This document shows positions 54,704 through 57,074 of a stretch of 64,000 nucleotides of DNA, piece after piece. The translations under genes and the position numbers were made by a program. Origin of the DNA: Escherichia coli (lineage in GTDB: Bacteria; Pseudomonadota; Gammaproteobacteria; Enterobacterales; Enterobacteriaceae); NCBI RefSeq assembly GCF_003018255.1, contig NZ_CP027440.1. One strand, given 5' to 3'. Position 1 is the first letter of the stretch; every line of letters begins with the position of its first letter. The notes below the pieces were generated by a model that was not told the origin of the DNA, ran no database searches, and saw only the letters and a list, made by a program, of their open reading frames with translations.

Positions 54704-55675
54704 GTGGCACAGGAATATACTGTTGAACAACTAAACCACGGCCGTAAAGTCTATGACTTTATGCGCTGGGACTACTGGGCTTTCGGCATCTCTGGTCTGC
54801 TGTTAATCGCCGCTATCGTTATTATGGGCGTGCGCGGCTTTAACTGGGGGCTGGATTTTACCGGTGGTACGGTTATTGAAATTACGCTCGAAAAACCGGC
54901 TGAAATTGACGTAATGCGTGATGCATTGCAAAAAGCCGGTTTTGAAGAGCCGATGCTGCAAAACTTTGGTAGCAGCCACGACATCATGGTCCGTATGCCG
55001 CCTGCTGAAGGCGAAACCGGCGGTCAGGTGCTGGGCAGCCAGGTCCTGAAGGTGATTAACGAATCCACCAATCAGAATGCGGCAGTGAAGCGTATTGAGT
55101 TCGTCGGTCCGAGCGTGGGGGCAGACCTTGCGCAAACCGGTGCGATGGCGTTGATGGCGGCGCTGCTGTCTATCCTCGTGTACGTAGGTTTCCGCTTTGA
55201 GTGGCGACTGGCGGCAGGGGTTGTTATTGCGCTGGCGCACGACGTTATCATTACGCTGGGTATTTTGTCGTTATTCCATATCGAGATTGACCTGACCATT
55301 GTGGCATCGTTGATGTCAGTTATCGGTTACTCGCTTAACGACAGTATCGTGGTATCGGACCGTATTCGTGAAAACTTCCGCAAGATCCGTCGCGGTACGC
55401 CTTACGAAATCTTTAACGTGTCCTTGACCCAGACGCTGCACCGTACCTTGATCACATCCGGTACTACCTTGATGGTTATCCTGATGCTGTACCTCTTCGG
55501 TGGTCCGGTACTGGAAGGCTTCTCGCTGACCATGCTTATCGGTGTTTCCATCGGTACTGCATCTTCCATCTATGTGGCATCTGCGCTGGCTCTGAAACTG
55601 GGTATGAAGCGCGAACACATGTTGCAGCAGAAAGTGGAAAAAGAAGGGGCGGATCAGCCGTCAATTCTGCCTTAA
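54704..55675 (+). CDS. secF: protein translocase subunit SecF
   Basis: GTG 54704 ([15 protein letters not shown]...), 323 aa; track ORF from 54659 overlaps the secD 3' end. Confidence 0.93.
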
Positions 55676-55695
55676 TCAAGTTTCAGCTGATGTTG

Positions 55696-55728
55696 AAAAT
55701 CCCGGTCAGAAGATCGGGATTTTTTTTG
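55696..55728 (+). terminator. intrinsic terminator after secF
   Basis: aaaatcccg-gtcagaagat-cgggatttt followed by tttt. Confidence 0.8.
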
Positions 55729-55804
55729 ATGTAAGGTGATTGCGAAAATCCCCGCATCTTGGGAAACTGCGCGTAACCCTACATTTCATCCAGGTAACTT
55801 TTTC

Positions 55805-56152
55805 ATGGCTATCATCCCAAAAAACTATGCGCGGTTAGAAAGCGGCTATCGCGAAAAAGCATTAAAAATCTATCCGTGGGTCTGCGGTCGCTGTTCCCGC
55901 GAGTTTGTTTATTCCAACCTGCGTGAACTTACCGTTCACCACATTGATCACGACCATACTAATAACCCGGAAGATGGCAGTAACTGGGAATTACTTTGTC
56001 TCTATTGCCACGATCATGAGCATTCGAAATACACCGAAGCGGATCAGTATGGTACGACCGTTATCGCAGGGGAAGATGCGCAGAAAGATGTCGGTGAAGC
56101 GAAGTACAACCCATTCGCTGATTTGAAAGCGATGATGAACAAGAAGAAGTGA
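55805..56152 (+). CDS. yajD: small HNH-motif nuclease-like protein YajD
   Basis: ATG 55805 (MAIIPKNYARLE...), 115 aa; Cys pair CGRC, HHIDHDH, CLYCHDHEH consistent with HNH zinc finger. Confidence 0.88.
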   Translation: MAIIPKNYARLESGYREKALKIYPWVCGRCSREFVYSNLRELTVHHIDHDHTNNPEDGSNWELLCLYCHDHEHSKYTEADQYGTTVIAGEDAQKDVGEAKYNPFADLKAMMNKKK

Positions 56153-56157
56153 TAAAA

Positions 56158-56185
56158 AATGCCGGATATGAAATCCGGCATTCTC
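56158..56185 (-). terminator. intrinsic terminator of tsx (hairpin shared with convergent yajD)
   Basis: tgccggat-atgaa-atccggca; on the minus strand it is followed by atttttta. Confidence 0.75.
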
Positions 56186-56189
56186 ACAA

Positions 56190-57074
56190 TTAGAAGTTGT
56201 AACCTACTACCAGATAACCACCCCAGCCGGTAGAGCGAACGTTGAAGTTGCCGTTGCCGAAGTTCAGTTCTGCATCGTCATTCCACTGACCACCGTTATG
56301 CCAGTAACGGGCAACGACAGAGTAGTGCCAGTGATCGTAATTCAGCGCCAGAATATGGCTGGACGCAATAGAGTTATTGGTACGTGTTTTAATACCGTTG
56401 TTCGCATAACCGCTGTCATCGCCCAGGTCGGAACCCCAGTCGAAGTTGGTGAAGCCGATGTAGCTCAGCTGGCCGCCCCACAGATCGGTAATCGGCACAA
56501 AGTACTTCACTTTGAAACGGTAACCGTCCCACTCGTTTTCGTTCGCTGCGCCGTAGTTCTGCCACTGGTATTTCGCATAGACGTTCATGGACAGGCTCAT
56601 CGGCAGACCAGTATCGATGTCGGTACCCAGACCCATGTACCAGGTGCTCTGGCGGCCATCTTTATTACGACCCATGTCGTAAATGTAGTTGTTCGCGAAG
56701 TACCACTCTTTGAACGGACCAAAGCTAAGGTCAGTATTGGTCAGCTTGTCGATGGAGAAACGCGGTTCGATTTCCATAAACAGCGGAGAACCGTGGTTCC
56801 AGATACCTTTTGCATCGGAGTTACCGCCGAAGAATACCGGCGCATCCGCATAACCATAGAAGTCGAACCAGTCTTTTTTAGCGAATGCTTCGTACTCAAG
56901 GTAGGTATCGTTGCGGAGCTGCGGTCCGAAACGGGTGTGATAGCTTCCGACAACGTTAACGCTCTGGTGCCACCAGTCGGAAAGATACTGCGGTTTGTCG
57001 TTTTCAGCTGCGTTGACAGTAAAAGACGAAGAGAGCGCCAGTACCGCACCGGCTGCCAGTAATGTTTTTTTCAT
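56190..57074 (-). CDS. tsx: nucleoside-specific outer-membrane channel Tsx
   Basis: ATG at 57072-57074 ([22 protein letters not shown] signal), 294 aa, C-terminal ...VVGYNF. Confidence 0.95.

Follow-up and report, generated by a model that had tools for sequence, protein, structure and literature searches.

The 64,000-nucleotide window analysed here, a stretch of Escherichia coli contig NZ_CP027440.1, carries at positions 55805–56152 on the plus strand an ATG-to-TGA open reading frame (ORF) of 115 codons plus stop, which is yajD of E. coli. Its surroundings have the gene order of the E. coli tgt-yajC-secD-secF-yajD-tsx-yajI-nrdR-ribD region, annotated in E. coli genomes as secF, yajD ("HNH nuclease YajD") and tsx, and its sequence agrees at 100% identity with the annotated yajD of many E. 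coli genomes. Of 5426 complete E. coli genomes, 5424 contain the 801-bp yajD region, and the median copy number is one. Translation confirmed the 115-residue product and the Cys/His motifs that the original prediction, made from the letters of the window, had read in it, namely C27-G-R-C30, H45-H-I-D-H-D-H51 and C65-L-Y-C68-H-D-H-E-H73. The coding sequence is further supported by matches to the Pfam HNH model (PF01844; E = 1.1e-12, 48.4 bits against a cutoff of 21.4), which aligns over model positions 1–47 of 47 with residues 27–75, and to the NCBIfam equivalog NF008448, "YajD family HNH nuclease" (E = 5.3e-63, 210.3 bits against a cutoff of 87), where the alignment is full-length and places residues 2–113 on model positions 2–113 of 113. 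Because both matches exceed their cutoffs, a chance ORF is excluded. The ORF is the already known, annotated yajD of a named family (NF008448/PRK11295; E. coli K-12 yajD), and for this reason it is ordinary as a discovery; should the leads on YajD set out below fail, no re-annotation of the window is required.

The HNH (beta-beta-alpha-Me) core occupies residues 27–73 (55883–56023, plus strand), as delineated by the Pfam alignment, residue conservation and a structural model. Conservation was counted in 364 YajD homologues that cover the core. The predicted zinc ligands C27, C30, C65 and C68 are kept in 360, 359, 362 and 361 of these sequences, respectively, and the two CxxC pairs that they form (C27-x-x-C30 and C65-x-x-C68; each kept in at least 359 of the 364) constitute a predicted structural zinc site of the zinc-ribbon subclass. 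The active-site region is retained to the same degree, with H45 in 359, H46 in 358, N60 in 360, H69 in 357 and H73 in 356 homologues. Further conserved positions in the core are D48 (Asp or Asn), H51, N54, the run D57-G-S-N-W-E62, E72 and H73; the block D57-G-S-N-W-E-L-L-C65 is near-invariant, and Y15 and R16 are conserved in the N-terminal helix.

An AlphaFold2 model of the monomer, computed from a 21-sequence alignment, has a mean predicted local distance difference test (pLDDT) score of 78.9, with values of 92–96 over residues 21–70, 52–56 in a linker and about 77 in a helix at 107–113. Its topology, with strands at 42–46 and 61–65 and a helix at 66–81, is that of the beta-beta-alpha-Me fold. 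Sequence and model together suggest a canonical H-N-H arrangement in which H46, the last residue of strand 1, would be the general base, accompanied by N60, and H69, directly after the second CxxC, would be a metal ligand. Another histidine, H49, aligns with H41 of T4 endonuclease VII; since H49 is replaced in about 13% of family members, we take H46 and not H49 as the general base. In model match, topology, catalytic His/Asn/His and CxxC pairs, YajD belongs to the HNH superfamily, and its active-site residues are complete and strongly selected. The HNH nuclease core that had been proposed from the motif spacing therefore stands on PF01844, NF008448 and conservation in the 364 homologues, and, because the zinc cysteines and H46, N60 and H69 are kept in 98–99% of these, YajD is likely to be an active nuclease.

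The family was surveyed by a homologue search over 5.8 billion proteins and by a separate HMMER scan of 1.84 billion cluster representatives, which returned 640 representatives at E ≤ 1e-3 and 291 at E ≤ 1e-10. So few matching representatives indicate a compact family. Identity to E. coli YajD is 83–98% across Enterobacterales, 70–80% in Vibrio, Photobacterium, Ferrimonas and Moritella, and around 65% in Colwellia, Shewanella and Pseudomonas; the named members outside Enterobacterales are all gammaproteobacterial (Metallibacterium, Woeseiaceae and others), and the more distant relatives are metagenomic proteins. The ratio of non-synonymous to synonymous substitution rates (dN/dS) between E. 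coli and Escherichia albertii is 0.018 for yajD, compared with 0.03–0.045 for secF and 0–0.017 for nrdR. Recent horizontal transfer as the source of the high identity was considered and ruled out, because third codon positions are saturated (about 50% identical, against 65–98% amino-acid identity across Gammaproteobacteria) and the G+C content at these positions, from 0.30 to 0.84, follows that of the host. The gene is ancient, under strong purifying selection and near-universal as a single copy in E. coli. Like some other E. coli genes it still lacks an experimental function, and among those genes it stands out, because its dN/dS matches the low values of its essential neighbours and yet its deletion has so far been silent.

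A second conserved element lies at the end of the protein. Residues 76–98 (56030–56098, plus strand) form a variable, low-confidence linker (pLDDT 52–56) without sequence conservation, and among homologues the second CxxC and the C-terminal motif are separated by 26 to 44 residues. The linker is followed by a conserved C-terminal peptide, residues 99–115 (AKYNPFADLKAMMNKKK; 56099–56149, plus strand), which was defined from the alignment, a motif count and the model and which in E. coli reads A99-KYNPFADLKAMMNKKK-115. The family consensus of this tail is [SA]-T-[HYF]-x-P-F-A-x-L-[KR]-x-[LM]-[LM]-K-[KR]-K. In the 21-sequence alignment F104 and L107 are conserved in more than 90%, and a strict PF[AG]xL is found in 221 of 308 distinct tails, most of the exceptions being evidently frameshifted metagenome calls, several of which read the +1 frame of E. 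coli yajD. The position of the motif's proline, 13 residues before the C-terminal end, is all but constant (interquartile range 13–13), and a helix is predicted at 107–113. No description of this peptide was found in the literature retrieved.

A tail at fixed distance from the end of the protein, with a P-F-A-x-L-x-x-[LM]-[LM] sequence and a basic terminus following a variable linker, resembles a docking motif. The alternative that it is an amphipathic helix for membrane targeting was examined and is not supported: its hydrophobic moment is low (0.11–0.25), compared with 0.27 and 0.57 for what we take to be the tails of MinD and FtsA, and a simple membrane anchor is therefore unlikely. The reading frames that overlap the gene were also inspected. 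One of them, at 55905–56126, is a 73-aa ORF in the +1 frame, and frameshifts into it account for several database "homologues" whose C-termini are odd (...GKMRRKMSVKRSTTHSL); these are errors of assembly or gene calling and not variants. Antisense ORFs of 101–168 aa that overlap yajD in some genomes are not conserved in E. coli and were judged to be artefacts.

In E. coli yajD stands alone, with its own short leader, terminators on both sides and a monocistronic layout. Upstream, secF ends at 55675 and is followed by the intrinsic terminator of the yajC-secDF operon (55695–55732, plus strand), a 13-bp stem with a 4-nt loop at 55695–55724 and then a T-run; a 65-nt stretch containing it folds at −23.7 kcal/mol (z = −4.85), and none of 200 shuffled sequences folds equally well. 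This terminator insulates yajD from upstream transcription. Downstream, between the yajD stop codon (56150–56152) and that of the convergent tsx (56190–56192), a hairpin with a 10-bp G+C-rich stem (56158–56182, both strands) serves as a shared bidirectional terminator, folding at −17.2 kcal/mol on the plus strand and −19.8 kcal/mol on the minus strand (z = −4.75 and −6.13), with a U-run on the tsx side only. A terminator downstream of yajD works in in vitro transcription (PMC12207403), and a pause within yajD that is suppressed by NusG and partly hairpin-dependent has been described (PMC10268239). Both structures, the strong terminator after secF and the hairpin common to yajD and tsx, had been recognised in the original prediction and are borne out by these data.

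The only flanking DNA that is conserved with the gene is its 5' leader (55755–55804, plus strand), which contains a Shine-Dalgarno-like CAGGTAA at 55791–55797, about 10 nt before the ATG. Across 25 Enterobacterales loci in differing genomic contexts, column conservation upstream of yajD rises from about 0.2–0.4 to 0.5–0.65 only in the last ~50 nt before the ATG, and at the other end it ceases at the stop codon. In the leaders of other genera ACAGGTAAYAYCAGCAATGGC recurs together with an upstream −10-like box (TATATT/TAGTAT/TATAGT). The box TATATT/TATAGT lies about 45–50 nt before the ATG in other Enterobacterales and has no obvious E. coli equivalent in 55725–55804, and a strict sigma-70 consensus scan returned no E. 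coli yajD promoter. A hidden RNA element in the flanks was sought and rejected: in 55400–56500 every Rfam family stays well short of its gathering score (the best, SorX, reaches 23 bits against 46.6, on the terminator hairpin), and the leader folds no better than shuffled sequence (z = −0.35). With regard to the start of the gene, an in-frame GTG at 55736 (extension 55736–55804) would give an ORF of 138 aa, and some database entries of YajD use an upstream start (139 aa). The N-terminus MA(I/L)IPKNY is kept across Enterobacterales, whereas similarity fades within about 50 nt upstream of the ATG, and the ATG at 55805 is accordingly favoured over the GTG.

The original prediction had noted that no partner gene adjoins yajD in the window, and this observation can be generalised. 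Eighty loci were taken from one-genome-per-species contigs, ORFs were called and clustered, and the immediate neighbours on each side were compared with Pfam and PHROGs. The 80 loci yielded 117 distinct immediate-neighbour families, no Pfam family occurred more than twice, and no recurrent partner was found; nine more contexts, drawn from metagenomes and genomes, have just as little in common. As neighbours never recur across contexts, the lack of a partner gene extends to the whole family. PHROG matches among the 117 families amount to one transposase, one ParA-like protein and one tail-lysin-like protein, and no tRNA gene lies within ±6 kb of yajD in 45 loci. The genes recQ, ligA, arfB, NYN, cls and usp were considered as partners and set aside, as a search of all the loci showed no recurrence of any of them, bar one distant DEAD-box-like helicase. 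In Metallibacterium, recQ is divergent from yajD at a distance of 90 bp and ligA lies 2 kb downstream (loci L083/L084, 4049–10793), an arrangement seen nowhere else. A single metagenomic lineage (L086/L087, 6001–6842) has a 148-aa RF-1-domain (arfB-like) gene whose start shares 4 nt with the yajD stop, with an NYN-domain gene next and a cardiolipin-synthase-like gene before yajD; this operon-like layout is seen there only.

The position immediately downstream of secDF, as first described, holds for the E. coli window and fails as a property of the family. Among the matches listed, the order secF-yajD-tsx is confined to Escherichia, E. albertii, Kluyvera, Pseudocitrobacter and Citrobacter koseri, and in Pseudocitrobacter an extra gene for a 466-aa peptidase-like protein is inserted between secF and yajD (L007, 4561–5961). 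In Citrobacter youngae, Citrobacter werkmanii and Citrobacter sp. FP75, yajD follows a GH18 chitinase-like gene and lies between ydjL and yeaC-msrB-gapA (L020/L021/L024, 6001–6342), a site that is empty in E. coli (L082, 4848–5216). Kosakonia has the gene between an esterase gene and a cold-shock-domain gene, Pantoea carries it on plasmids of about 160 kb, and most other genera have a context of their own. Thus proteins that are 92–96% identical are encoded at differing chromosomal sites among Enterobacterales genera, with no mobility or tRNA genes nearby. This scatter may reflect old relocations, replacement by the copies of relatives, or second copies; no description of the changing position of this housekeeping-like gene was found in the literature retrieved.

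Of the 17 papers in the searchable literature in which yajD is named, none characterises it, and the accessible parts of the supplements to a 2025 y-gene phenotype screen do not mention it. The target of YajD likewise has no assignment in the searchable literature, as the original prediction had remarked. In Salmonella, cbpA/yajD and ychN/yajD double mutants show lower survival in 15 mM H2O2 (PMC3878590).

From these observations we propose that YajD is a housekeeping DNA-nicking or structure-specific nuclease that is recruited or regulated via its C-terminal peptide, a reading whose chances of being right or wrong we judge to be about equal. Taken by themselves, the claim that YajD is an active nuclease is more likely than the combined reading, and the claim that its tail is a docking peptide is less likely. 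In this proposal a single HNH domain would be stabilised by one zinc ion on the four cysteines; H46 would activate a water molecule, and H69, together with N60 and the nearby D48, H51, E72 and H73, would hold one divalent metal, and the enzyme would cut one strand of nucleic acid, most likely DNA. As the protein lacks a sequence-reading domain, it would be expected to nick non-specifically or to read DNA structure or damage, as do other small stand-alone or appended HNH domains. The flexible linker would carry the P-F-A-x-L-x-x-L-L sequence and its basic extension, whose spacing from the C-terminus is fixed, and this tail might dock YajD on a conserved cellular protein encoded elsewhere, or might regulate the nuclease, and in this way supply specificity. 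The overall role would lie in DNA repair or replication housekeeping, and neither in defence nor in a mobile element.

Several points weigh against this proposal. No biochemical activity has been reported for any member of the YajD family in the searchable literature, and we infer the choice of substrate, whether DNA or RNA, structure or damage. The tail is unlike QL[SD]LF, which we take to be the bacterial clamp-binding consensus; alternatively, it might pack against the core or join two subunits into a dimer, and the role that we assign to it is one that we purely infer. The two contexts that might indicate a pathway point in different directions, recQ/ligA to DNA and the arfB-like gene to the ribosome, and both are confined to single lineages and do not recur. 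Finally, the single yajD deletion in Salmonella was silent in tests of growth, stress and mouse virulence (PMC3878590), which sits oddly with such strong conservation.

Other explanations have to be set against the housekeeping nuclease. YajD might be the leftover or solo part of a mobile or defence system, a homing-type HNH protein or partnerless effector that persists selfishly or like a toxin. The gene does change position among related genera (secF-tsx in Escherichia, Kluyvera and C. koseri, ydjL-yeaC in the C. freundii group, the esterase-csp site in Kosakonia, plasmids in Pantoea), and conservation of nothing beyond the gene and its ~50-nt leader would fit movement as a minimal unit. Between E. 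coli and C. youngae, moreover, yajD is 78% identical in nucleotides (48% at third positions) and its flanks 82.7%, so synonymous divergence is larger in yajD, and weak matches exist to Zorya ZorE and to phage HNH families. Against this, rapid evolution and a patchy distribution are the norm for defence and homing genes, while yajD has a dN/dS of 0.018, 65% protein identity between E. coli and Pseudomonas, a base composition fully ameliorated to that of its host, and one locus in 5424 of 5426 E. coli genomes. No integrase or nearby tRNA was seen, and a single transposase occurs in the 117 neighbour families. An origin in phages was rejected: a tblastn search of 50,697 phage records found no YajD orthologue, the best matches reaching 47–51% identity over a core of about 60 aa only, and PHROG matches are to generic HNH families. 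Across these records, the 117 neighbour families and the 45 loci checked for tRNA genes, no phage, prophage, intron or intein context was found. Membership of a defence system (Zorya ZorE, Septu PtuB, retron-associated HNH, CBASS Cap5) was likewise rejected, as ZorE is the only PADLOC match (E = 4e-7 and 4e-6) and places residues 8–76 of YajD on about 200–269 of 282 model positions, a generic HNH segment; no defence partner (zorABCD, ptuA, reverse transcriptase/ncRNA, cyclase) is among the neighbour families listed, and the E. coli neighbours are secF and tsx. Only the positional scatter thus speaks for a selfish element or defence remnant, and we regard this explanation as very unlikely. The same data qualify the original prediction, whose observations are confirmed and whose interpretation is supported with one reservation. 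Its comment that orphan HNH proteins of small size often act as partners in unrecognised systems does not fit YajD, as the gene shows no phage, defence or mobility signature and behaves as a housekeeping gene.

Two further explanations concern the activity itself. YajD could be a non-catalytic zinc-binding adaptor with an HNH fold, which binds protein or nucleic acid without cutting, in the manner of Legionella DotN/IcmJ. A purely structural role would need the four cysteines only, and the retention of H46, N60 and H69, each in 98–99% of 364 homologues, as well as of D48/N, H51, E72 and H73, contradicts it; we give the adaptor little credence. Alternatively, YajD could act on RNA or the ribosome, for instance by cutting mRNA or rRNA in translational stress. 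Some enzymes with the HNH fold are plastic in their substrates, as colicin E9-type DNases and related RNases illustrate, and some neighbours would suit such a role, namely the arfB-like RF-1-domain gene with its 4-nt overlap and the NYN-domain gene after it in one metagenomic lineage, a DEAD-box-like helicase adjoining yajD in one Vibrio locus, and the cold-shock-domain gene of Kosakonia. None of these neighbours recurs, however, and the closest structural relatives of YajD are all DNA enzymes, which makes action on RNA distinctly improbable.

How far does the proposed DNA nuclease resemble known systems? No structure of a YajD-family member has been solved, and sequence searches of the Protein Data Bank (PDB) give only a weak match to T4 endonuclease VII beside spurious C2H2 zinc fingers. 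The zinc-finger likeness (SALL4, ZBTB17, PRDM9; E = 2e-4 to 1e-2) was dismissed as arising from the pattern P-x-C-x-x-C-G-x-x-F...H...H; residues 24–51 of YajD (55874–55957), P-W-V-C-G-R-C-x-R-E-F...L...H-H-x-x-H, mimic the eukaryotic C2H2 consensus. Comparison of the model with known structures gave scores of 7.3 for the human ZRANB3 HNH domain, 6.7 for the phage GVE2 HNH protein, 6.4 for both EcoKMcrA and Legionella DotN, about 5–6 for Cas9 HNH domains, 4.8 for Gme HNH and 4.0 for T4 endonuclease VII, and Foldseek recovered the same relatives with weak E-values. T4 endonuclease VII (PDB 1E7D/1EN7; Pfam Endonuclease_7) is the sole non-spurious sequence match (E = 0.008), and in the alignment of YajD 15–73 with its residues 8–66 the H-x-D-H-D-H and C-x-x-C-(H/N)-x-x-E motifs correspond residue for residue; neither family nor structure match is significant enough to place YajD in that family. 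The terminase-associated HNH proteins of phages (GVE2, PDB 5H0O; HK97 gp74 type) differ in context, as YajD has no terminase, cos or prophage neighbours, and EcoKMcrA, unlike YajD, possesses an extra domain that reads DNA modification.

In its layout YajD may be likened to Gme HNH of Geobacter metallireducens (Gmet_0936, PDB 4H9D), a small stand-alone Cys4 protein that forms a dimer and nicks weakly in a Mn-dependent manner; it prefers AP-site DNA but not cruciform DNA, and its authors suggest that it may need partners (PMC3765158). The two proteins share no significant sequence similarity, Gme HNH being absent from the PDB sequence matches at E ≤ 1. Where Gme HNH has N77 after the second CxxC, giving an H-N-N site, YajD has the canonical histidine, H69, and Gme HNH lacks both a YajD-type linker and the C-terminal P-F-A-x-L peptide. 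An HNH domain combined with a docking peptide is found in ZRANB3, whose HNH domain is structure-specific and cuts branched DNA, and whose C-terminal APIM peptide, which attaches to PCNA, is required for the nuclease to be stimulated (PMC5481773). The human domain (PDB 5MKW) is 19% identical to YajD and sits at the end of a 1079-residue ATP-dependent translocase, unlike the single-domain YajD, and the YajD tail matches neither the APIM motif nor the bacterial clamp-binding motif. The parallel can serve only as a lead to how YajD might work. By this analogy YajD might be a bacterial housekeeping counterpart of the HNH-plus-docking-peptide arrangement, a minimal nuclease whose cutting of damaged or branched DNA would require the tail to be docked on a hub of replication or repair such as the sliding clamp, SSB or RecA. 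We consider this specific form unlikely; it would nonetheless explain together the extreme conservation, the lack of a nearby partner gene, the absence of a phenotype in the single deletion and the sensitivity of the double mutants to peroxide, and if the tail does tether YajD to a replication or repair hub as that of ZRANB3 does to PCNA, a widespread nuclease would be added to gammaproteobacterial DNA metabolism.

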